Below, piece after piece: positions 1 through 10,118 of a stretch of DNA of 64,000 bases. Position 1 is the first letter of the stretch. The number at the start of each line of letters is the position of its first letter. Under the pieces are notes generated by a model, which made no database searches, was not told the DNA's origin, and saw only the letters and a program-made list of their open reading frames with translations. The translations under genes were made by a program, and so were the position numbers. This stretch comes from a virus: IMG/VR virus record IMGVR_UViG_3300036940_000389; one strand, 5' to 3'.

Positions 1-59
1 TGTCCAAAAAGTTTCCAGCAATTTCCAACACAGTTTCCTTTTTCATGACACAATCTCCT

Positions 60-269
60 TTAGTATAAATTTTCTTCAATACCTACACGTCCATATATTG
101 GGCGGGTCCAGCCAGATTTTGACAGCCAGACAATGCCTATTCCTCTACAAATAGAACATCGAATTCCGTCCTGTGCAGTTGATCCAAAACCATCACATCT
201 AGGACAAATTTTTTGCTCTCCGAATTCCATTTTACATTTTGAGTGATTATAAATTTTCCCCTTCCTCAT
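60..269 (-). CDS. small zinc-finger protein (DnaJ-type CxxCxGxG repeats)
   Basis: CPRCDGFG and CSICRGIG motifs; SD AAAGGAGA upstream. Confidence 0.7.
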   Translation of the reverse strand: MRKGKIYNHSKCKMEFGEQKICPRCDGFGSTAQDGIRCSICRGIGIVWLSKSGWTRPIYGRVGIEENLY

Positions 270-301
270 AGAAATTCTCTCCTTTGTTTAGAATTACAAA
301 A

Positions 302-368
302 GTTTAGTTCCTTCAATTGGATCTGGAACAAAATTTTCAGAAGTTCCAGATCCTATGAAAGATTAAAC
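302..368 (-). repeat. long imperfect stem-loop after stop codon (early-operon hairpin family)
   Basis: core GGATCTGGAAC/GTTCCAGATCC (319-329/343-353), extended by CTTTCA/TGAAGG and GTTTA/TAAAC. Confidence 0.75.
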
Positions 369-851
369 TATTTCAAGATTCATGCTTTCCATGTGATCAT
401 TCATGACTTGGTGGAAATAAGTTTCATCAAGTTGTTTGAGAATGTGCCCAGCATTGAATTCTTGTCCAGCAATATTTACTGGATAGTATTCATCTAGCAT
501 TTGAATTGTTAATTCCTCCCCTAATTCTTTAGTGATTGGGATTGGTTTGTCATCGTACTCATCTACCGTATCACTGAATGCCCGAGAGATTCCTTCATCA
601 TATGCTTCCCAGGCATCATCAGAATCCTCTCTCTCATTCAAATCCTTTGCGAAGAACTCAAATGGGGAGTACGTGCGGTAATTTTCCTCAGCCTCTGTCA
701 ACTCTTCCATGAATGCTTCTTTGAATACTTCTTTGTCCGCTTCTCTCATATTATCTACAGGATCAGGAGAGTTTGCCTGTGCAATTTGCTCTCCAACACG
801 ATAGCCCTCATTCTCCAGCTCTTCTAATGTCGCCTCTTTCCAGTCAGTCAT
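363..851 (-). CDS. acidic hypothetical protein
   Basis: 162-aa ORF, GAGGAGG SD, ATGA overlap with upstream gene. Confidence 0.8.
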   Translation of the reverse strand: MTDWKEATLEELENEGYRVGEQIAQANSPDPVDNMREADKEVFKEAFMEELTEAEENYRTYSPFEFFAKDLNEREDSDDAWEAYDEGISRAFSDTVDEYDDKPIPITKELGEELTIQMLDEYYPVNIAGQEFNAGHILKQLDETYFHQVMNDHMESMNLEIV

Positions 852-1090
852 AAATCCTCCTCTATGAAAGTGATGTTCGGTTGAAAAGGTTTCATAATAT
901 CAACATATGATTTTGCATGGTGTAGAGCTTTATTTCTGTTTTCTAAACTTTCCTGAATGTTATTTCCTATGTATTTATAAGCAACAATAAAGTGATGCCC
1001 TGACCACACAGAAAACTGCCCTTCCATGTAATCGAACAGATCCTTATTTTCCTCTGTTCGATTGGGATTATTACTTTGCTTCCTTTTCAT
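848..1090 (-). CDS. hypothetical protein
   Basis: ORF-track frame; start moved to ATG 1090 (MKRKQ), which overlaps the end of the upstream gene. Confidence 0.55.
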   Translation of the reverse strand: MKRKQSNNPNRTEENKDLFDYMEGQFSVWSGHHFIVAYKYIGNNIQESLENRNKALHHAKSYVDIMKPFQPNITFIEEDL

Positions 1091-1385
1091 AATTTCCGTC
1101 CATTTTAATTGCCAAATTAAGAAAATGATTTTCCGCATCCTTTTGACAATGATATCTTACAAGGTTGTAATCAATTTCATCTTCTTCGGGACCGAGCCAT
1201 TCAGGCTCATAATCCCAATAGAAGAATTGATCCCAAAAATGTTCTCCATCGATAAATCCTTTGATATCTATGCAGTTGTGGGAATCATCTTCAAACATGG
1301 AAATTCTGTTATTCTCATCCTTTTCAAAACGAACACCATGACCACACAAATACCCATGATCTGTGGGAAATTTGATATCTGCCAT
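1071..1385 (-). CDS. hypothetical protein
   Basis: 104-aa ORF, GAGGTG SD, tight packing. Confidence 0.75.
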   Translation of the reverse strand: MADIKFPTDHGYLCGHGVRFEKDENNRISMFEDDSHNCIDIKGFIDGEHFWDQFFYWDYEPEWLGPEEDEIDYNLVRYHCQKDAENHFLNLAIKMDGNYEKEAK

Positions 1386-1386
1386 A

Positions 1387-2034
1387 TTACATCACCTCAT
1401 AATGTTTGTAAGGAAATGCTTTGAGCTTGATCTTTTCCTTAGTCTCTCCATCAGACAAGAGAAGCCTGCTATACAGCTTTGGATCAAGATTTCCCAAAGT
1501 TACAGGACGATCAGCATCAGCGGCAAGTTCCCATGCCTCATCCCGATCAATGGTCCCATACATTCCAAAATCTTGTGCTGCTACTTCATAGGATCTTTCC
1601 AGCGCATTTACAATTTCCTCTATCTCTTCTTTTGTGAATTCTGGCAGTTCCATAACATTCTCCTTATTTTGTTTATAGGAAAGAAGTTCTTCCTTTCTTT
1701 CGGTTACTCTGCCAACGACATATTCCATTGGAAGTTCTGTACTGTTTTTTGATAATATACAGGGACAAGGCAGCATAAGTAATCGTCTTGGTTTGTTCAT
1801 TCTTTTAAAGAGCCAATAGAATCTCATTTCCTGCTCAAAGAGCATTACACAATCCCAACAACACCAAATCCTGTTTAATGGTGCCCTTTTAGGTTCATCT
1901 CCAAAACAAGAATGTGTTCCAAATAAATCAAGTGCTATATGCGCTGGACAAATTTTATCGGAACACTTACCATCTAGCTCTTTCTCCAATTCACTCAAAA
2001 CCATAAAATGCATTTGTTTTCTTTTTGGAGTCAT
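1387..2034 (-). CDS. Cys-rich protein (paralogue of 3487-3930) fused in frame to a second acidic ORF
   Basis: LDGKCSD..CP..NRIWCCxDC..PCPC shared with 3487-3930; internal TAAGGAGAATGTT-ATG at 1653 in frame. Confidence 0.75.
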   Translation of the reverse strand: MTPKRKQMHFMVLSELEKELDGKCSDKICPAHIALDLFGTHSCFGDEPKRAPLNRIWCCWDCVMLFEQEMRFYWLFKRMNKPRRLLMLPCPCILSKNSTELPMEYVVGRVTERKEELLSYKQNKENVMELPEFTKEEIEEIVNALERSYEVAAQDFGMYGTIDRDEAWELAADADRPVTLGNLDPKLYSRLLLSDGETKEKIKLKAFPYKHYEVM

Positions 2035-2044
2035 GATGTTTTCC

Positions 2045-2275
2045 TTATTTTGTTTTTGTTTCTATGAACAATTCCATTTCAACTTCGCTGCTTCCCATAT
2101 CTCCATGATAGATGGAAACAAATGCCCATTCTCCGAATAAAGTCATAAATGAGGTATTGTCCATTGATGCAATCCATGTGTCTGAATTTGAATAAATATG
2201 GACAACATCAGTATCCGTGCTGTCCTGAACTGCAACCACCTTAGTTTTTCTTGGATCTGACAATGGTGTGCTCAT
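2045..2275 (-). CDS. hypothetical protein
   Basis: 76-aa ORF, AAAGGAGA SD. Confidence 0.7.
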   Translation of the reverse strand: MSTPLSDPRKTKVVAVQDSTDTDVVHIYSNSDTWIASMDNTSFMTLFGEWAFVSIYHGDMGSSEVEMELFIETKTK

Positions 2276-2313
2276 AGAAATTCTCCTTTGTTAGGAATTA
2301 CAAAAATTTCAAA

Positions 2314-2337
2314 ATCCAACATCCAACATCCAACATC
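2314..2337. repeat. 7-bp tandem repeat (ATCCAAC x3.4; GTTGGAT on minus strand)
   Basis: ATCCAAC at 2314, 2321, 2328 plus ATC. Confidence 0.9.
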
Positions 2338-2385
2338 ATTGTCAGCTCCAAAGACATAATCCTTGGAGCTGATATGAGGTTAGAT
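2328..2385 (-). repeat. 58-nt imperfect stem-loop at stop codon (hairpin family)
   Basis: core TCAGCTCCAA/TTGGAGCTGA; outer ATCTAAC/GTTGGAT. Confidence 0.75.
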
Positions 2386-2766
2386 TATGTCTAGCTGTAC
2401 AGATAGAATTTTAGCTTCCTCGCCTGAGATGTATTCTTTCTCCACCATATTTCTCAGTGTTTTTTCAACTGCCACTTTGGCAGTCATTTGTATGCATGGA
2501 CATATTATTGCGGGTCTGACTTGAACAAATCCAGAACATATGCAGCAAGGAGAGCTATTAGGTTTCCATAAATCATCAGGATCACTATTTGGATCGAAAT
2601 CTGTGGTTGCGGGACATCCTAACTCATGTAAAGGATACTCTGCTTCTATATGTCTGGAGAACATTTCCAGAAGCCTATACACATGAATTTCCTCTGTGTA
2701 TTCAAACTCACCTTCATTCTCATAATTTTCAGGAAATATTTTGGGAAGTAATGAATCAGGATGCAT
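2380..2766 (-). CDS. Cys-rich hypothetical protein (distant member of the CP..CC..CPC family)
   Basis: GCPA, PCCICS, ICPCI; start reassigned using AAGGAG SD. Confidence 0.7.
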   Translation of the reverse strand: MHPDSLLPKIFPENYENEGEFEYTEEIHVYRLLEMFSRHIEAEYPLHELGCPATTDFDPNSDPDDLWKPNSSPCCICSGFVQVRPAIICPCIQMTAKVAVEKTLRNMVEKEYISGEEAKILSVQLDII

Positions 2767-3100
2767 GATCATTCTCCTTGTCTTGAGGAATAAGAATTTT
2801 CTCAAACCACTGAGACATGAGATATGCTACTCCTTCTATTTTATGCTCATGTTTTGGTTCAAAACTTCTCATAACATATGACAAATGGGCTACTGCTTTT
2901 GTTGTATCAATTCCTTCTTTTGGAATGACTTTTGTTCCTTCAGGAAGTCCTTTAAAGAACCATCGTTCCACAATTTCTACCCATTCTGATTTGTCAGCTT
3001 TTGTCCAATCGAATTCTTCAGGAATTTGATGTCTTTTAGGCAACAGTTCAAAAAACTTCTTCCCATAATAATTGCCGCTTGATACATCCTTAGGCTTCAT
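2756..3100 (-). CDS. conserved phage hypothetical protein
   Basis: WFFKGL..PKEGID..SFEPKHEHK..VAYL.S.WF pattern resembles a recurrent phage/prophage family (from recall, not searched); AAAGGAGA SD. Confidence 0.75.
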   Translation of the reverse strand: MKPKDVSSGNYYGKKFFELLPKRHQIPEEFDWTKADKSEWVEIVERWFFKGLPEGTKVIPKEGIDTTKAVAHLSYVMRSFEPKHEHKIEGVAYLMSQWFEKILIPQDKENDHAS

Positions 3101-3524
3101 TTTCAATCTCCTTTGCTTTTATTAAACATGGTCCCCCTTTCATCAGTTCCCTAACTGTGTCTGCGGAAATTTCAAAAATCTTGCCTCCTTGCTCAGTTGA
3201 TGTTGTTGGATCTTTCAGATAGAAAAACTTCACTTCCTCATCCCGAGAATTGAGCCAGTATTCAAGAATAGAATTGCGGCGACTGCTTCTGGCATCCTGT
3301 ATGTGAATAATATGAGTTCCGCATTTTCTCACAACCCAAATGTACTCAAGGAGAAGACTTCTTTTTTCAGCATCCCTTCCAATGATGTAGGCATCCCAGA
3401 GCATGTCGGAGTCATAAAGCTCAATATGCTCACTTCCTATACGGTGCATTTCAGACAATACCGATGGCATAAATGCCTCCTTCGAATCATAGAGTTTCTG
3501 ACCAATACATTTTTGCCAATTCAC
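3090..3524 (-). CDS. hypothetical protein
   Basis: 144-aa ORF, GTG start, overlaps neighbours. Confidence 0.7.
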   Translation of the reverse strand: MNWQKCIGQKLYDSKEAFMPSVLSEMHRIGSEHIELYDSDMLWDAYIIGRDAEKRSLLLEYIWVVRKCGTHIIHIQDARSSRRNSILEYWLNSRDEEVKFFYLKDPTTSTEQGGKIFEISADTVRELMKGGPCLIKAKEIENEA

Positions 3525-3930
3525 TTATTCTTTCCAACACCCTTTCTATTACTAATGGTCCAGGAAGATCATCAGGAAATCCGCATGATAATACACATGG
3601 ACATGGATATCTTGTCGATGTGTGAAATTTCTTTCCCCATCCTCTGATTTGTGATTCTGTTTTATTGAATCTTCTTTTTGCCAGCATATGAAGATTGGCA
3701 AAAGGACTGAACAATTCAACACAGTCTACACAACACCATATTCTGTTTCTTGTTTCGTCATAAATTCCTTTTGTGTTCTTTCCTTTTGTCTCTCCTGATC
3801 CAAAAAGTCTACTTGCTATATAGCTTGGACAAGATTCAAGCTCATCTGAGCATTTTCCATCAAGAACATGTTCCAATTCACGTAGCACTTCATAGTGCCA
3901 GAAAGCTCTTTTTTTGGTAATCGTTGCCAT
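3487..3930 (-). CDS. Cys-rich protein (paralogue of the 1387-2034 N-half)
   Basis: LDGKCSD, CPS, NRIWCCVDC, YPCPCVLS; GAGGTG SD before ATG 3930. Confidence 0.8.
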   Translation of the reverse strand: MATITKKRAFWHYEVLRELEHVLDGKCSDELESCPSYIASRLFGSGETKGKNTKGIYDETRNRIWCCVDCVELFSPFANLHMLAKRRFNKTESQIRGWGKKFHTSTRYPCPCVLSCGFPDDLPGPLVIERVLERISELAKMYWSETL

Positions 3931-3934
3931 CTTC

Positions 3935-4126
3935 TCACCTCTCATATTTACGTTTGCATTCTTCCCACACATCAGGAGTCACAGGAATGTCTTTTGGATT
4001 TCTGTCATAAGTGCTTTCCTGCCAAGAAACACATCCAGTAGGAATGCCACGACCTGATTTGTTCATTCCTACTGCTCCAGGCCAAATTGACGGAACCGAT
4101 TGTGAAGGATACTTTACTTTCGCCAT
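3935..4126 (-). CDS. small hypothetical protein
   Basis: 63-aa ORF, AAAGGAGA SD. Confidence 0.65.
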   Translation of the reverse strand: MAKVKYPSQSVPSIWPGAVGMNKSGRGIPTGCVSWQESTYDRNPKDIPVTPDVWEECKRKYER

Positions 4127-4154
4127 TCACACTCTCCTTTTTTGTTTGGGTTAT

Positions 4155-4217
4155 TTCCATCATTCGGTTCTGGAAATAAGGAATCTAAAATCAAAATTTC
4201 CAGAACCTCAGATAGAA
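4155..4217 (-). repeat. long stem-loop after stop codon (hairpin family)
   Basis: TTCTATC-TGA-GGTTCTGGAAAT / ATTTCCAGAACC-GAAT-GATGGAA. Confidence 0.8.
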
Positions 4218-4224
4218 TTAAATT

Positions 4225-4533
4225 TTACACCCAACGAATAACTCGGTATTTGAGCCTTTCGTTTTTCAAGTGATCAACCAGTATGATTTTGTCACCATAG
4301 TCAAGTATGGTTTCAGAGAGATAGTGGTGGGGTCTACCTCTTGGTAGTTTCTTGTGAAACTTCTCCAAGTCAAGATTCACTGCCTCCTCTTCCTCCATGT
4401 TCAAATAATTCCAGGATTGATTGACCCGCATCATTTCAGCCACCTGGATGTAATCAGCCTCATACACTCTGAGAGTACCATTCCTGTCGATCATTCTTGG
4501 AGTTATGTGGTTCACAAATATCAACCTGTTCAT
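4225..4533 (-). CDS. hypothetical protein
   Basis: ORF-track frame; start ATG 4533 with GAGGAG SD and ATGA overlap. Confidence 0.7.
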   Translation of the reverse strand: MNRLIFVNHITPRMIDRNGTLRVYEADYIQVAEMMRVNQSWNYLNMEEEEAVNLDLEKFHKKLPRGRPHHYLSETILDYGDKIILVDHLKNERLKYRVIRWV

Positions 4534-4694
4534 ACCAAAATCTCCTCTACTGTCTGGACAATTACGTGCCAGGGAGAATTCTTCTCGACCACAGCACAAA
4601 ATTCACCAACAACAACATCCCAACAATCTGTTATCAAGGACTCCTGAATCAGAACAGGAGTCATTTCGCCTTTGATTCTGATATTGATTTTCAT
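4530..4694 (-). CDS. small hypothetical protein (54 aa, not in ORF track)
   Basis: MKINIRIKGEMTPVLIQESL...EEILV*, AAAGGAGA SD, stop overlaps the next ATG. Confidence 0.65.
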   Translation of the reverse strand: MKINIRIKGEMTPVLIQESLITDCWDVVVGEFCAVVEKNSPWHVIVQTVEEILV

Positions 4695-4812
4695 GGTAAT
4701 TCTCCTTTTGCTTTTCCTTTGCTGTTTCCTTGCACGATAGACTCTGGCACGTAGCAGACAAGCACAAGGTCTGAAACGTGCAAGGAATGATGCATTCCGC
4801 TCAAAGGAAGCA

Positions 4813-4956
4813 CTACTGAACTCTTGCTTTACGTCTCACTTTGACAGTGGGCGCAGAAGGGGCAGAAACTGCCGCTGGTGGGCACTTCGGAAGGTCGTTT
4901 CTACTTTTCTTGGAAAAATTGACAAAGGATGCTTGATGGGCAGTAATCGTGTTCAT
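4813..4956 (-). CDS. small basic peptide (47 aa, not in ORF track)
   Basis: MNTITAHQASF...VRRKARVQ*, GGAGG SD 8 nt upstream. Confidence 0.45.
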   Translation of the reverse strand: MNTITAHQASFVNFSKKSRNDLPKCPPAAVSAPSAPTVKVRRKARVQ

Positions 4957-4985
4957 GGGGAAAACCTCCATGTTAGACATTAAAA

Positions 4986-5050
4986 CAAAAATCCCCTAGC
5001 CACAGCATCCTGGGATCATAAAAATCCCAGGACACAATGGGAGAGGATCT
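4986..5050 (-). repeat. long stem-loop after stop codon (hairpin family)
   Basis: GATCCTC..CCAT..TCCTGGGAT / ATCCCAGGA..GTGG..GGGGATT. Confidence 0.75.
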
Positions 5051-5053
5051 ACA

Positions 5054-5374
5054 TTATTCTCCTTCTGGTTCTGGATTAAATTCTTCGTACCATTCATCCC
5101 AAACACGTTCCACGTGCTTGGTGAAGTATTCTCTTCCTGCCATAGCTGCCGCATAAGCCATAGAAAGCTCATGGGCAAAATTACCCTCTCCTTTTTTCTC
5201 CAGGTGATGCATTTGGTTTTGGATCAGTTCGGATTGCTCCTCAAAATAGCCATAGTTGTTGGAAATGTGATCCAACGTAACGGCCAATGCTCTTCCTACT
5301 GGCTGATGAGTATGAATCCTCTCAGCCAATGTTTCCAACATGGTTAGGTCAGTGTGGATTGTGTACGGGATCAT
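5054..5374 (-). CDS. hypothetical protein
   Basis: 106-aa ORF, AAGGAGA SD. Confidence 0.75.
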   Translation of the reverse strand: MIPYTIHTDLTMLETLAERIHTHQPVGRALAVTLDHISNNYGYFEEQSELIQNQMHHLEKKGEGNFAHELSMAYAAAMAGREYFTKHVERVWDEWYEEFNPEPEGE

Positions 5375-5376
5375 AA

Positions 5377-5664
5377 TTACTCTCCTTCGAGGTCATCAAG
5401 TTCGGGGAAGTCAAATCCCCATGTCTCTCTCAATTCCTCCCGTTCCCATCCCTGAAGATATGCTTCTACCATATTTCTATGATAGGAATCACAAATCTCC
5501 CACTTCTGAAAAAATGAATTCCACCTAATAATAGTATCAATCATTGTTTCAGGACCATCTTCAGAATCCTGGGACTCATAAACGCCCTGGGCGTAAATCA
5601 CGCCCCGGATACTCACCACTCCGGTGATTCCAATTCTTTTTGAGTCTACCATGATATAGGCCAT
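5377..5664 (-). CDS. hypothetical protein
   Basis: 95-aa ORF, GGGAGG SD. Confidence 0.75.
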   Translation of the reverse strand: MAYIMVDSKRIGITGVVSIRGVIYAQGVYESQDSEDGPETMIDTIIRWNSFFQKWEICDSYHRNMVEAYLQGWEREELRETWGFDFPELDDLEGE

Positions 5665-5693
5665 AAATCCTCCCTGATTAAAGATTGGAAAAC

Positions 5694-5754
5694 CAAATCC
5701 TCTTACCAGTCAGCTCTAGGAATCATGTTCCTAGAGCCTCAGATACTAGGATCT
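5694..5754 (-). repeat. long stem-loop at stop codon (hairpin family, close homologue of 6221-6279)
   Basis: GATCCTAGTATCTGAGGCTCTAGGAA-CATGA-TTCCTAGAGCTGACTGGTAAGAGGATTTG. Confidence 0.85.
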
Positions 5755-6088
5755 ATTCAAACTCCTCAAATTCTACGTGGCAATCAATGGCTCCGCAGCC
5801 ATTTTGCAGTCCACACGTTTTCCCACAGGCTGTGCAGCAGGATTGATATGTTTCTACATTCAACTGTCCACAGATGGGACACACCTCAAGCCCATCTCCT
5901 GCAGGACAGACAATAAAATCCTCTTGGGAAATCTCTTCAGGGAAAATCCTTATTTTCTCCCCAGGATAATAATATGAGATTTCTCCATCACTTCCGTAAA
6001 CTTCCCACCAGCCATCAGAGCACCAGTGGGAATTTTCAGGCATTTCATTCCTATAATTTCCTGCATGATCCTTCAATAACATAATCAT
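5753..6088 (-). CDS. zinc-ribbon-like hypothetical protein
   Basis: CPICG, CCTACG, CGAIDC; AAAGGAGA SD. Confidence 0.75.
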   Translation of the reverse strand: MIMLLKDHAGNYRNEMPENSHWCSDGWWEVYGSDGEISYYYPGEKIRIFPEEISQEDFIVCPAGDGLEVCPICGQLNVETYQSCCTACGKTCGLQNGCGAIDCHVEFEEFE

Positions 6089-6094
6089 TCTCCT

Positions 6095-6190
6095 TTACAG
6101 TCCAAATACAAAAAACACATATGGGAATAAGAAGAGTATTCCCATGCCAACCAAAAATTTCAAAATTTCCATCATCAATTCTTTATCCAT
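6095..6190 (-). CDS. 31-aa membrane peptide (not in ORF track)
   Basis: MDKELMMEILKFLVGMGILFLFPYVFFVFGL*, AAGGAGG SD. Confidence 0.6.
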   Translation of the reverse strand: MDKELMMEILKFLVGMGILFLFPYVFFVFGL

Positions 6191-6220
6191 TGCGTTCCTC
6201 CTTATTATGAATTCCTAGAA

Positions 6221-6279
6221 CAAATCCTTTACCATTCAGCCCTGGGAAAATAAATTCCCAGAGCCTCAGATATAGGATC
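6221..6279 (-). repeat. long stem-loop at stop codon (hairpin family)
   Basis: GATCCTATATCTGAGGCTCTGGGAA-TTTATT-TTCCCAGGGCTGAATGGTAAAGGATTTG. Confidence 0.85.
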
Positions 6280-6802
6280 ATGCCACTGCTCTGTCCTCTT
6301 CCTTGTCTAATCTTTGGGATCCCCACGTTGCTCTCATGGTATCCCAATCAACTCCTTTACCCTTCCTATGATATTTCTCTGGCTTGATATACCAAGCCAG
6401 CTTGGTTTTGGAGAAGCCGACACCGCAATCAGCTTCCTTTCCAGCTTCTTTTATTACTTCCTTCACTGGTTTTGTATCACCAGTGATCCAGAGCCAGGAG
6501 CCTATCAGCTCCAACTCAATTCCAGGAATCCTCTTGAGAGTTTCATACGCCCTCAGGAGCTTGTCTCCAAGAAGCTCATTCCCTGTTGAGGGCTTCCCAC
6601 TCATCAGGTAGTCCTTCAAATCATTCCAACGATCTGAGGCCTCCTTATACGCCTCATTCACCATCTGCATGATCTCATTTCCTCGATCTCCTACCAAGTC
6701 AGGATGATATCTCTTGGCGAGATTTCGATACTTGGTCTTGAGATCCTCAAGACTGTTCTCAGTCTCAATTCCTAAAATGTCGATTACGGTTTGTAATTTC
6801 AT
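6278..6802 (-). CDS. J-domain (DnaJ-like) protein
   Basis: LKTKYRNLAKRYHPD..MQMVNEAY J-domain with HPD; C-terminal LIGSWLWITGDTKP..K..AWY domain. Confidence 0.85.
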   Translation of the reverse strand: MKLQTVIDILGIETENSLEDLKTKYRNLAKRYHPDLVGDRGNEIMQMVNEAYKEASDRWNDLKDYLMSGKPSTGNELLGDKLLRAYETLKRIPGIELELIGSWLWITGDTKPVKEVIKEAGKEADCGVGFSKTKLAWYIKPEKYHRKGKGVDWDTMRATWGSQRLDKEEDRAVA

Positions 6803-6933
6803 TGGGGAATACCTCCTTCTAATCTCTCCTAATATCTATTTTCTCAGGCCCTATCTCAGATTTTATTTAACATGAATAGAACATAATACACCTCCTTAAT
6901 AGATATTACATAACTCCAAATATGTGATACTGC

Positions 6934-6997
6934 ACAATCAGCACCATTTGGCCCCCCATACGACCCGAGCCGTATGGGGATCCTAAGGTGGGATTGT
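6934..6997 (-). repeat. long stem-loop after stop codon (hairpin family, divergent)
   Basis: ACAATC..CACC..CCCCATACG / CGTATGGGG..GGTG..GATTGT. Confidence 0.7.
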
Positions 6998-6999
6998 AG

Positions 7000-7491
7000 T
7001 TATTCGGATTCTTCCTGTTCGTATAGTGCAACAAATAATTCTGCACTATATGCGGGATCCAATGCGCCGTGTGAATAAAGCGAACGGATTGTGGCGCGGA
7101 TAGCATTCACATAACCGTTCTGCTTGGACTCTACACCGAGCATGTCCCTTGCCTCCTCCTCACTGAGCGTGGGATCCATTACCATGAGGTCAGCCAGTTG
7201 ACTGACCATTGCCTCTGAGTCTCCAAGGAGCCAGCGCCTAGTGGCACGTGCCCTCTTGGTGTACTGAGGGCCCTTAGGAGTCCGTTTACACCCTGTCCCT
7301 GTCCCTGTGGACTGGGTGGCTGCCTCGGCCTTGGCTTTGGCGTCCTCTTGAGCCTCAACCCGTGCCTTTTCTGAGGCAATGAGCCTCACCAGTGCCTTGA
7401 GAGGCAGTCCTTCAAACTCACCGGCGTCTTCGCCTGTGATCTGAACCAATTCCTGTACTGCATCCTTCTTAGTGATTGTTGCATTTGACAT
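7000..7491 (-). CDS. first gene of the leftward (early) unit, hypothetical
   Basis: 163-aa ORF, AGGAGGTG SD, GC-richer than the rest of the window. Confidence 0.8.
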   Translation of the reverse strand: MSNATITKKDAVQELVQITGEDAGEFEGLPLKALVRLIASEKARVEAQEDAKAKAEAATQSTGTGTGCKRTPKGPQYTKRARATRRWLLGDSEAMVSQLADLMVMDPTLSEEEARDMLGVESKQNGYVNAIRATIRSLYSHGALDPAYSAELFVALYEQEESE

Positions 7492-7499
7492 GGTGCACC

Positions 7500-8270
7500 T
7501 CCTAGTGCAGTTATAAGTGGGAAACCAACTCCATTCTGCCGGGAATGGCTTGGGATCATGGTGTCTGGAGACGGCTTCCTAGCCGTAGTTCCGATTGACC
7601 ACAATCCCACTCCATCCCAGATATGGAGCGCGGTATACGCCACGGGTCCTGGCCTGCTATGTGCTTCCCTGATATTAGGATCATGGCTGCATAGCCTTTG
7701 TGGCTCGCCGTCGGGGCGTATTCTAAGGTGAGGGCAGACGGGTTTTGATATGCGGGGCTTTATTCGGTTTAGATCCTGTCCTTAGGAGCTAGTCACCAAA
7801 GATCTTACACTAGGAATCCGCTGCCCCGTATATCTCATAACTACACGGGGACCTAGTGCTTCCCACCCTTCCTGGCGTAACATACGCCTACAGGGAGTGG
7901 GAAATGGGATCATGGCTCCAAACGGGACTAGGCAGCCTCCGCAGGGACTCGCCACCAATCTGGTGTCCCCCACCTAGCATAGACTTTGTTCCCACTTTGC
8001 GTGAGCCTATCGAGGCAGTTGTCCATGACCTGCCTCCGTCCGAGATATCTTAGCTCGGAACATATCCCCCTGCTCCCCCTTTTACCCCGGGATCATTGCA
8101 TGGGTTCCCCTTTCTGGGCTGCCTCCGATCAGTGGCTCCAGACGGTGCGTGGTCTATATGCTCACCGCTGTTGCCGTGCCGTTGGCTATGTCAAAGAGCG
8201 GGTTAACTGACCCCCTATGTTAAAGTTGAGCGCCTTGCGCTGGTAGCTGGTGTCGAGACACCACTACAAT
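7500..8270. other. GC-rich, hairpin-dense non-coding region between divergent units (candidate large ncRNA, origin or genome-end element)
   Basis: stems at 7552-7608, 7677-7777, 7808-7858, 7860-7902, 7905-7994, 8012-8036, 8039-8059, 8248-8263; GGGATCATGG-like motif x4; 57-63% GC in two sampled lines. Confidence 0.6.
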
Positions 8271-8344
8271 CGAATGCTATTTTTCAAAGTAAAGAGATTA
8301 AGTAACACGTCTTCTAATACTCATATACACGTCTACACGTTCAA

Positions 8345-8381
8345 TACACACTCACTACACACTCACTACACACTCACTACA
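8345..8381. repeat. 11-bp tandem repeat TACACACTCAC x3.4
   Basis: copies at 8345, 8356, 8367 plus TACA. Confidence 0.95.
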
Positions 8382-8410
8382 TTTGAATCTCTTCTGGAAG
8401 TGTGATATTT

Positions 8411-8435
8411 ATTGTATTATATTGTATTGTATTGT
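8411..8435. repeat. 5-bp tandem repeat ATTGT x5 (one ATTAT variant)
   Basis: read directly. Confidence 0.9.
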
Positions 8436-8437
8436 TT

Positions 8438-8467
8438 GGATACATAAGGATACATAAGGATACATAA
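8438..8467. repeat. 10-bp tandem repeat GGATACATAA x3
   Basis: copies at 8438, 8448, 8458. Confidence 0.95.
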
Positions 8468-8489
8468 GACACACAAAGGAGAAAATATA

Positions 8490-9377
8490 ATGCCAAGAAC
8501 AGGTCAAGGAAATGCAATTCCTCATGGGGTACAGAATAAGCTTGGAGATGTAAGGCTAGAGAAAGGGAGATGGGGAAATGATAAAGAGAATAGCATTTAT
8601 ATACTAGCGTGGGATTTCGCTGAGGATTGCACAGGAATTAAATGCCCGCTGTATGAGAAGTGCGAGTACATGCAGATACAGAAGAGTGTTCCTTGCGAAA
8701 GGACAAGCAAGTGTGCGCTTCAGCAGAAGTACCTCAAGAGTGTAATGAAGGCTGTTGTTGAGAAGATGAAAAAGAACAAGGCTACTGAGGAGACTGTGAT
8801 AAAGTTAGGATATCATTTGATTCCTCTGTATGCTCAGTTGTTCAAGTTCAAGATGTGGGAAACGTACAATAAGGAGATTATAATTTATTCTCAGGGGAGT
8901 CCTAAAGTGCATCCTGTGTACAAGGAGATGAGAGAGATTATAAAAACGCTCACGAGTGTTTGGAAAGATATTGGAAGTGTGTTTAAGGAGAAGGCTGATC
9001 CAGGAAAAGTAGGAGATGGGGCTTTTATAGACGCTATGTACGGAGTGGTTGATGAGGAGTCAGAAGAGGATCCAAAAGGATCAGGAATTGATTTCGAGTC
9101 AGAGGATGATGAGGAAGAATCAGAAGAGGGAACAGGATTAGATGAGTTAGATCAGCCAGTGAAGAAAAAGAAAGCACGAGGAAAGCAAAAAAATTATCAT
9201 AAGAAGAAAAGGAAGCCTAGATCCAAAGCAAAAATTGATGTTCCAGGATATAATTCAAGAGCGCATAGGAATGAGGTCAGGAAAGGGGAGAAAGCAGAGC
9301 CGATAAGAGTCTCAGAGAAAGTAGCTGAGAAGAAAAGGAAGCGCAAGGAAAAGCAAAAGGAGAGCGGGGAAAACTAG
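8490..9377 (+). CDS. terminase small subunit (putative) with acidic and basic C-terminal tails
   Basis: first gene of the packaging operon; KVHPVYKEMREII resembles the P27-type TerS motif; AAAGGAGA SD. Confidence 0.6.
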   Translation: MPRTGQGNAIPHGVQNKLGDVRLEKGRWGNDKENSIYILAWDFAEDCTGIKCPLYEKCEYMQIQKSVPCERTSKCALQQKYLKSVMKAVVEKMKKNKATEETVIKLGYHLIPLYAQLFKFKMWETYNKEIIIYSQGSPKVHPVYKEMREIIKTLTSVWKDIGSVFKEKADPGKVGDGAFIDAMYGVVDEESEEDPKGSGIDFESEDDEEESEEGTGLDELDQPVKKKKARGKQKNYHKKKRKPRSKAKIDVPGYNSRAHRNEVRKGEKAEPIRVSEKVAEKKRKRKEKQKESGEN

Positions 9378-9563: not shown

Positions 9564-10118
9564 ATGGACGTAGATCAATGGATAGCACAGAATACGTTTT
9601 ACTGTCCTACTCTTGTCTCCAGAATTACTACTGCTCAGTGTAAAATCAATAGAAATAACGCAAAAACAAATGGGACACATGATAAGAGTGTTCATCCCTG
9701 TGTTAAATGCGATGATAATAATCTCTATGAGAAATACCAAAAGGAAATGTTTATGAAGGATTCTGCTCCAATTGATGGATTAGAAAATTGTGATGTGTAC
9801 AATCCTCTCAAGAATAAGTGTTTTGTGAGTATTTTTATGAATCTTACAGCATGTATCTCAAGCAATCTCAAACGACAGTTTCAGGTTTCTTATAATTATG
9901 TAGTTCCTGGATATGATAAGGATAATCACACTTTGAAAATAAAATTGTTCAATGAGAAGATCCCAGGATCTCAGAAATTGTTTCATAATCGGGGCAGTTT
10001 CAATATCAGCGGAGCACTACACTATTGGGGATTAGCTGAGGAATTAAAAGGAAAGCGATTCAGAGCAGAGTATGCTGGTAATAGTGTAGTTCTAGTTCAT
10101 TTGTCGAATGAGTTGTAA
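9564..10118 (+). CDS. hypothetical protein with N-terminal Cys cluster
   Basis: FYCP..QC..HPCVKC; GGAGG SD. Confidence 0.7.
   Translation: MDVDQWIAQNTFYCPTLVSRITTAQCKINRNNAKTNGTHDKSVHPCVKCDDNNLYEKYQKEMFMKDSAPIDGLENCDVYNPLKNKCFVSIFMNLTACISSNLKRQFQVSYNYVVPGYDKDNHTLKIKLFNEKIPGSQKLFHNRGSFNISGALHYWGLAEELKGKRFRAEYAGNSVVLVHLSNEL

Follow-up and report, generated by a model that had tools for sequence, protein, structure and literature searches.

A family of long internal-loop hairpins behind the stop codons of a predicted early operon in a lambda-like phage

The window analysed here is a stretch of 64,000 nucleotides (nt) from the IMG/VR record IMGVR_UViG_3300036940_000389 of an uncultivated virus. 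It corresponds to positions 11753-75752 of that single-contig record of 89,286 bp, and the same or near-identical DNA is present in oil-field, subsurface and groundwater metagenomes; a search of sequencing runs found no RNA run that contains it. Positions below are those of the window unless they are given as genome or contig positions. The plus strand carries genes for terminase, portal, protease, major head protein, tape-measure protein and a lambda-J-like tip protein, and the minus strand genes for replication and nucleotide metabolism; judged by this gene content, the virus is a lambda-like, long-tailed phage. It encodes a small sigma-like protein and an intein-bearing SNF2 helicase, and no RNA polymerase, integrase or RNase III is encoded anywhere in the 89-kb record. 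Our subject is a family of long, imperfect hairpins that stand between the gene blocks of its leftward early arm. How are these hairpins built? Does selection act on them as DNA or as RNA? And what might they do to the transcript in which they lie?

The early arm begins behind a GC-rich non-coding stretch at about 7500-8270, runs leftward and crosses position 1 of the window into the remaining genome. Its genes are small and mostly without a known family. They are arranged in blocks of one to five genes, which overlap or lie no more than 23 nt apart within a block, and in the window the blocks are separated by hairpin-bearing gaps of 87-203 nt. Gene calls by JGI on identical contigs independently give the same stop positions. 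The gene packing and the lack of promoter-like sites suggest a single transcript, an operon of about 10 kb in total that extends past the window to genome position 8990 and has two more hairpins in that outer part. Are the blocks copies of one another? An all-against-all BLASTP comparison of 30 early proteins found a single paralogous pair, so the blocks are not tandem duplicates. The pair consists of Cys-rich proteins of 215 amino acids (aa; 1387-2034, minus strand) and 152 aa (3487-3945, minus strand), which share 41% identity and occupy separate hairpin-bounded blocks. The operon and its hairpins are listed in the direction of transcription, with bit scores from the covariance model introduced below.

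269..7491, minus strand: in-window part of the leftward small-gene operon, from gene maps and gap folds
6930..7000, minus strand: H7, a three-tier hairpin that starts 1 nt past the stop of the 163-aa gene; training copy (-35.1 kcal/mol, z -3.6; 55.5 bits)
6218..6282, minus strand: H6, overlapping the UGA stop of the DnaJ-domain gene (70.6 bits)
5692..5755, minus strand: H5, overlapping the UAG stop of the 109/111-aa gene (60.5 bits)
4986..5053, minus strand: H4, a 26-bp hairpin that follows the 106-aa gene (57.3 bits)
4704..4812, minus strand: Hx, a 109-nt, 36-bp nested hairpin at the stop of a 47-aa open reading frame (ORF) (-37.9 kcal/mol)
4153..4224, minus strand: H3, following the 102-aa gene; upper stem of 12 bp, apical region of 18 nt (49.2 bits)
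2322..2384, minus strand: H2, overlapping the UAA stop of the 128-aa gene; a model match, not in training (-34.9 kcal/mol, z -7.4; 26 bits, E 9e-5)
303..370, minus strand: H1, at the stop of the 162-aa gene; a model match, not in training (-28.7 kcal/mol, z -6.7; 24.4 bits, E 2.7e-4)
genome 10982-11051 (outside the window), minus strand: the tenth hairpin, of the same build and position and of different sequence
genome 8990-9063 (outside the window), minus strand: the eighth copy of the family, not in training (24.5 bits)

A sequence-only reading of the window had placed seven related stem-loops, H1 to H7, on the transcribed minus strand, each beginning at a stop codon or within 7 nt of it. 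Folded as minus-strand RNA, the seven have minimum free energies of -26.9 to -37.6 kcal/mol and z-scores of -3.6 to -7.4 against dinucleotide shuffles, and a 70-nt sliding fold of the whole genome recovers all of them and points to additional hairpins elsewhere in the arm. Pairing starts -3 to +7 nt from the stops at 363, 2380, 4225, 5054, 5753, 6278 and 7000, and in the minimum-energy folds of several copies the stop codon itself sits inside the lower stem. The folds, our own gene map and the JGI stops all agree with the positions given in that reading. The kinship of the copies was addressed with covariance model R1, built from an alignment (A1) of H3-H7 and three strain variants and run over the whole 89-kb genome with filters off. 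The model reports eight copies at E<1e-3, all of them intergenic, on the minus strand and within genome 8990-18752, and its next match has E=0.2; that training on H3-H7 retrieves H1 and H2 at E of about 1e-4, and the eighth copy besides, bears out the claim that the hairpins are related. Hx has the position and build of the family, yet it is not matched by the model, and it was absent from the original list of seven. Every gap of 87-239 nt from genome 18752 to 8890 holds a hairpin at -3 to +7 nt from a stop, since Hx and the hairpin at genome 10982-11051 occupy the gaps that remain. The eighth copy starts 66 nt past the stop of the 177-aa gene; the stop directly ahead of it is that of a 22-codon mini-ORF, so that the copy obeys the placement rule only if this mini-ORF is counted. 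The mini-ORF encodes a hydrophobic peptide (MFIEILALAIILWALWYWLFED; genome 9064-9132, minus strand), overlaps the stop codon of the larger gene, runs exactly up to the eighth hairpin and is missing from the JGI gene calls.

The hairpins share a build of lower stem, 4-bp middle stem, internal loop and an upper stem of about one helical turn. In their minimum-energy folds nine of the ten have 18-27 pairs, and Hx has 36. In H6, for example, the lower stem is GAUCCU/AGGAUU and the middle stem UAUC/GGUA, the internal loop is 3x4 and the upper stem has 11 bp; H5 is a near twin of H6, differing by compensatory G-C to A-U changes in the upper stem. Upper stems measure 11-14 bp throughout, while the apical loops range from 3 to 18 nt and are unrelated in sequence, and this combination of a constant upper stem with a variable tip fits recognition of the helix, not of the loop. 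At the level of sequence, the motif GG(C/T/A)TCT(G/A)G(G/A)A had been ascribed to most upper stems. It is indeed enriched (eight occurrences in the window versus 1.3 expected, six of the eight within hairpin arms) and is present in four of the seven upper stems. The outer arms GATCCT/RGGATT, said to be shared by several copies, are found in three of the seven (H4, H5 and H6). GATC itself occurs seven times in the hairpins against about four expected, a difference that is not significant, and GATC is over-represented genome-wide. Behind the hairpin comes a leader bearing a Shine-Dalgarno sequence, with 28-39 nt to the next start codon in six of the ten.

The best-conserved unpaired parts among the copies are the internal loop and a 3' motif, (A)AUG(G/A)U. 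Could a protein be reading them? The hairpins would then be operators for a phage or host RNA-binding protein (for example, a repressor of translation, a chaperone or an antiterminator) that recognises the internal loop (5' UGA versus 3' GAAU, possibly with tandem G.A pairs) and the middle stem. We consider this highly unlikely. The strict UGA/GAAU loop occurs only in the related subfamily of H3, H5, H6 and an extra hairpin of a sister strain (contig L001, described below), and because it is confined to these close relatives it may reflect recent ancestry. As read from the sequence, the loop is also unlike a canonical kink-turn, with its 3-nt bulge on one strand only, and no RNA-binding or RNase domain was found in about 30 early proteins.

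Is the fold itself maintained? The RNAalifold consensus on alignment A1 has 18 pairs, 13 of which show changes on both sides; paired cells amount to 95%, compared with 77% in shuffles (none of 500 is as high as the real alignment) and 32-54% in controls with slid partners. The transcribed strand is the more stable one in all ten hairpins, with summed energies of -304 versus -227 kcal/mol, and the ten contain 33 G-U pairs, in keeping with the earlier remark that several such pairs work on that strand alone. Comparison of orthologs between strains gives 16 substitutions over three hairpins. Four of these make two compensatory pairs, seven are unpaired, four retain a pair through A-U/G-U or C-G/U-G exchanges that work on this strand only, and one disrupts a weak pair, in whose place new pairs form. 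The ortholog of H7 in L001 has two double compensatory pairs and one A-U to G-U change. The hairpin fold is under selection, on the mRNA strand: the G-U pairs and the strand asymmetry in ten of ten copies indicate that RNA, not duplex DNA, is what selection acts on. The sequence-only reading had spoken of a punctuation code acting on the RNA, a view that covariation, strand asymmetry and structure-keeping strain changes now support. A closer strain, L015 (98.2% identical), has four differences in about 700 nt of hairpin versus about eight expected, which is not significant.

Stable hairpins directly behind stop codons resemble terminators, and the first function to consider is termination. A consensus scan for canonical terminators calls none of the ten. 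The 10-nt tails contain one to five U (mean 3.7/10) except that of H4, which has 7/10, and eight of the ten hairpins are without a U tract; the statement that no copy has one was correct for six of the original seven and fails for H4, the sole in-window copy with a U-rich tail. The ordinary terminators of this genome belong to another class, with short, perfect, GC-rich stems and U runs, and they lie at the ends of late units. What about promoters? No sigma-70-like site was found in any in-window hairpin gap, in a scan based on the sigma-70-like consensus, from which the host promoter consensus may differ; the total of promoter-like sites on the minus strand is below shuffle expectation, and leaders of about 30 nt are too short to accommodate a promoter inside the gaps. 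With no promoter there, efficient termination would silence all downstream genes.

A softer version of this idea is that the hairpins work as leaky terminators poor in U, as attenuators or as pause sites, and so step down expression along the early operon; later in infection an antitermination factor might override them, or the structured, GC-rich leader at 7500-8270 might do so. For H4 and for the last copy (genome 8990-9063), at least, such a role is probable; the latter has UUUUU and is followed by a promoter-like TTGACA-N17-TAGTAA. The operon opens with a structured leader of 770 nt, and the stem-loops of the PeSL elements of T4-like phages do terminate in reporter assays (PMC2839356). As an account of the whole family, however, we find leaky termination rather unlikely. 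Ten such sites in series, with no promoters in the gaps, would starve the distal genes, and termination has no need of helices as long as 18-36 pairs, with their conserved internal loop and one-turn upper stem. The motif TTGACA-N17/18-TAGTAA(AGAA) is the only well-conserved promoter-like motif and occurs once in the genome and once in L001. In the genome (8941-8969, minus strand) it lies past the last hairpin and before the helix-turn-helix, sigma-like and SNF2 genes, and in L001 (4989-5018) ahead of the gene-146 unit. With this arrangement at genome 8941-9063, the last hairpin may close the operon.

If not primarily terminators, what are the hairpins? The sequence-only reading had pointed to the early mRNA of phage T7, and we folded the intercistronic gaps of the T7 early region for comparison. 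They contain paralogous hairpins of 45-55 nt in which an internal loop separates the lower stem from a 9-13-bp upper stem. These hairpins overlap or abut the upstream stop (the stop of gene 0.4 lies inside R0.5) and end about 20 nt before the next start. The analogy stands, in that the same two-tier internal-loop design at the upstream stop is seen in the T7 folds. The RNase III signals of T7 (R0.3, R0.5, R1, R1.1 and R1.3) and the hairpins described here are in both cases paralogous internal-loop hairpins of 45-70 nt between early-operon genes, placed at the upstream stop, followed by a Shine-Dalgarno leader and lacking a U tract. The T7 early operon is transcribed by the host RNA polymerase, and the same is probable for this phage. 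The two also differ: the helices of this phage are longer, three-tier and more stable (-25 to -38 versus -21 to -26 kcal/mol), and the phage itself is lambda-like and long-tailed and has no RNA polymerase of its own. The likeness does not extend to sequence homology with the T7 site family (AAGGUC...GUGGCCUUUAUGAU). The best match of our covariance model on the T7 early region has E 0.95, and MAFFT, given both sets of hairpins together, does not bring them into register. One local resemblance was noticed after the fact, between T7 site R1 (2702-2750; UAUCU-U-A / CUGAAU-A-GGUA) and H6 (6224-6276; UAUCUGA / CUGAAUGGUA), and may be convergence or chance. Related early-mRNA processing sites also occur in the Bacillus phages SP82 and SPO1.

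Our best explanation, to which we give about an even chance, is that the hairpins are signals for mRNA processing, for 3'-end protection or for both, and that they split the early transcript into hairpin-capped blocks. Cleavage of the RNase III type is the most likely specific mechanism. Escherichia coli RNase III needs about two helical turns, and internal loops limit it to a single cut, in one strand, that leaves a protective 3' hairpin on the upstream piece (PMC1540722). The ten folds, with their 18-36 pairs, offer a helix of about two turns with an internal loop or bulge, and the one-turn upper stem, conserved loop and free tip fit this mode of recognition. In this scheme the host RNA polymerase would make one long early transcript, and a hairpin would form directly behind the stop of the last gene of each block. 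A host double-strand-specific endonuclease of the RNase III type would then cut in or near the internal loop; alternatively, 3' exonucleases would halt at the helix. The upstream block would end in a protective 3' hairpin and the downstream block would gain a 5' end of its own, and the blocks would thereby acquire separate stabilities and translation rates, as in the T7 early region. A side effect would follow. Because hairpins and leaders are conserved between fast-diverging ORFan genes, they would also serve as homology patches for the exchange of blocks between strains.

Several points weigh against the processing and protection account. That the host has an RNase III is an assumption, and the phage has no gene for one. 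Paralogous copies within one genome supply much of the covariation, the paralogue alignment leans in part on the palindromes themselves, and the orthologs from other strains are shallow. The tails of H4 and of the copy at genome 8990-9063 are U-rich and could terminate, and a promoter-like TTGACA-N17-TAGTAA follows the latter. The parallel with T7 is one of design only, because there is no homology of sequence, and the evolutionary depth is small because the family is confined to close strains.

Those close strains offer a view of how the hairpins behave over time. The sister strain (contigs L001 and L027-L034) matches this genome at 99% identity across the structural genes and at 95% in the DnaJ-domain gene. 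It carries an extra unit, consisting of genes for proteins of 110 and 64 aa and a hairpin 90% identical to H6; the insertion sits directly before the DnaJ leader, with a hairpin-type joint exactly at its other end. Its homologue of gene 163 has 37% amino acid identity, and the hairpin behind it is 84% identical with compensatory changes. The gene-163 unit lies upstream of a GC-rich, structured, non-coding element of about 680 nt in the sister strain and downstream of it in this genome (element at 7529-8202, minus strand, and at L001 5613-6296; both start with CTCTTTGACATAGCC); either the element or the unit has moved. Leaders are shared too: those of H1 and H2 are 89% identical, and that of H4 matches the leader following the extra L001 hairpin. 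The hairpins are conserved islands amid diverging genes, and the moving unit appears to be a set of genes plus their 3' hairpin and leader.

Are the hairpins then selected mainly as joints for recombination? Homologous exchange between copies would then allow the swapping, gain or loss of blocks of ORFan genes. Hairpin and leader would be the joints of a promoter-less gene-cassette system, in which blocks are excised, moved and inserted between hairpins by a PeSL- or attC-like logic without promoter or integrase, possibly aided by the RecA-like and SbcCD-like proteins of the phage. PeSLs are the natural comparison. They are repeated motifs in which a strong sigma-70-like promoter is joined to a stem-loop (Arbiol et al. 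2010, PMC2839356), and they act as recombination joints (PMC2839356; Comeau et al. 2014, PMC4122927). Like the hairpins of this phage, they are intergenic, reach from the upstream stop to the downstream Shine-Dalgarno sequence, contain G-U/G-T pairs, and sit among small ORFan early genes. PeSLs are tied to gene gain, loss and replacement in close relatives, and the hairpins may be as well, as they bound one inserted and one relocated unit. The stems described here are much longer and have internal loops, and the gaps are promoter-less except at genome 8941-9063; the hairpins are thus not PeSLs proper. The extra unit of the sister strain, the gene-163 unit on either side of the GC-rich element and the leaders common to different units all speak for joints. 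Against this, the G-U pairs and the ten-of-ten strand asymmetry indicate selection on RNA, the patches common to copies are only about 12-50 nt long, and a site-specific recombinase is absent from the phage. Further breakpoints between strains (genome 9676, 12616, 16032 and 17123) fall at plain gene junctions or inside genes; at 9676, a 177-aa gene is swapped for four other genes in other strains. Logan contigs from four DNA runs break at hairpins (genome 8978, 9021, 12051, 15927, 18001 and 18707) and also at plain junctions and inside genes, which yields no clean statistic, and their short-sided joints are unreliable. We therefore hold it decidedly unlikely that recombination is what the hairpins are selected for. 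The earlier suggestion of recombination points for cassettes retains its core in the extra and relocated units, and the other breakpoints deny it exclusivity: the link between hairpins and recombination appears real and not exclusive, and with other breakpoints at plain gene junctions, recombination looks like a by-product of conserved islands. Were the hairpins nonetheless such joints, the RNA fold would make each arriving block an independent, hairpin-capped mRNA.

A covariance model and a search of related phages had been proposed as a check. The model recovers the family, as described, and the search extends it to close strains only. A pattern scan of viral contigs found the motif in the sister strain alone (L001/L005), and a scan of metagenome contigs gave four chance matches in unrelated coding DNA. 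There were no matches in 185,579 prokaryote genomes, so the motif is not a repeat borrowed from a host. The covariance model found none in 13 loci of more distant relatives and none in four whole related viral records, most of which are fragments in which the early region is possibly missing. A homology search with the 109-aa early protein returned that protein alone, and a terminase scan of prokaryote genomes found no prophage. Exact-protein look-ups led to identical or near-identical strains, usable for ortholog changes, and the relatives found through the DnaJ gene (L002-L004, 30-34% identity) are too distant for comparison. A permissive cmscan of positions 1-9000 against Rfam, ribozymes included, gave one sub-threshold chance match on the wrong strand. 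As a sequence family the hairpins therefore appear new, since neither Rfam nor the other viral contigs and genomes that were searched contain them; elements of this kind are already known from T7.

These searches also bear on a selfish origin, in which a functionless palindromic repeat of the MITE or REP type would have spread through the intergenic gaps. The element does look the part: it is an imperfect palindrome, 55-75 nt long, that recurs only in non-coding gaps and has inverted arms at its ends. We find this scarcely credible, since all copies have one orientation and a fixed position relative to stop codons, hairpins travel with genes and were not seen to be present or absent on their own between strains, the motif is absent from the prokaryote genomes and other viral contigs, and compensatory changes show that the fold is maintained. 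REP and BIME elements are informative in another respect. These intercistronic palindromes stabilise upstream segments of mRNA. They and Rho-independent terminators are, like the hairpins of this phage, stable structures on the 3' side of a coding region, able to stop 3' exonucleases; the phage element differs in being single-copy and in one orientation at each block boundary of one operon. Two further candidates were set aside. The integron attC core pair, RYYYAAC...GTTRRRY, is found in one of the ten hairpins (H2, probably by chance), and the 89-kb record encodes no tyrosine recombinase. A readthrough, SECIS or frameshift stimulator does not fit, as all three stop codons are in use and the extensions amount to merely a few codons.

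What would follow if the hairpins are processing or stabilising signals? The T7 solution, in which a long host-made early transcript is cut into hairpin-capped pieces, would then have been reused with an unrelated sequence family in a lambda-like phage of the deep subsurface. About ten natural substrates with graded stems and loops would be at hand for the study of RNase III-type site choice in non-model hosts, and the strain comparison amounts to a small natural experiment on how conserved RNA elements among ORFan genes guide mosaic exchange. The value of the case is that of a well-documented example and not of a new principle.

Some smaller features lie next to the hairpins. H2 is followed by three tandem copies of GAUGUUG/GUUGGAU (2299-2330, minus strand). 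After H7 comes a strong Shine-Dalgarno sequence, AAGGAGG, with a 5-codon mini-ORF, MFYSC (6867-6884, minus strand), which may be a leader peptide; at about 5598-5621 of L001 an analogous mini-ORF of seven codons occupies the same place and reads into the start of the GC-rich element. Outside the window, the SNF2-family helicase (973 aa; genome 3805-6726, minus strand) is split by an intein with Hint and LAGLIDADG domains, and the 158-aa protein ahead of it (genome 6723-7199, minus strand) has a weak match to sigma-70 region 2 and is a candidate for a sigma factor of the phage. Two sets of short tandem repeats occupy the divergent region that separates the early arm from the structural genes, an 11-nt unit (CTACACACTCA) present three to four times at 8333-8376 and a 10-nt unit present three times at 8440-8470. 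It is mainly at these repeats that L015 differs from the present genome, with 72 of its 196 differences.

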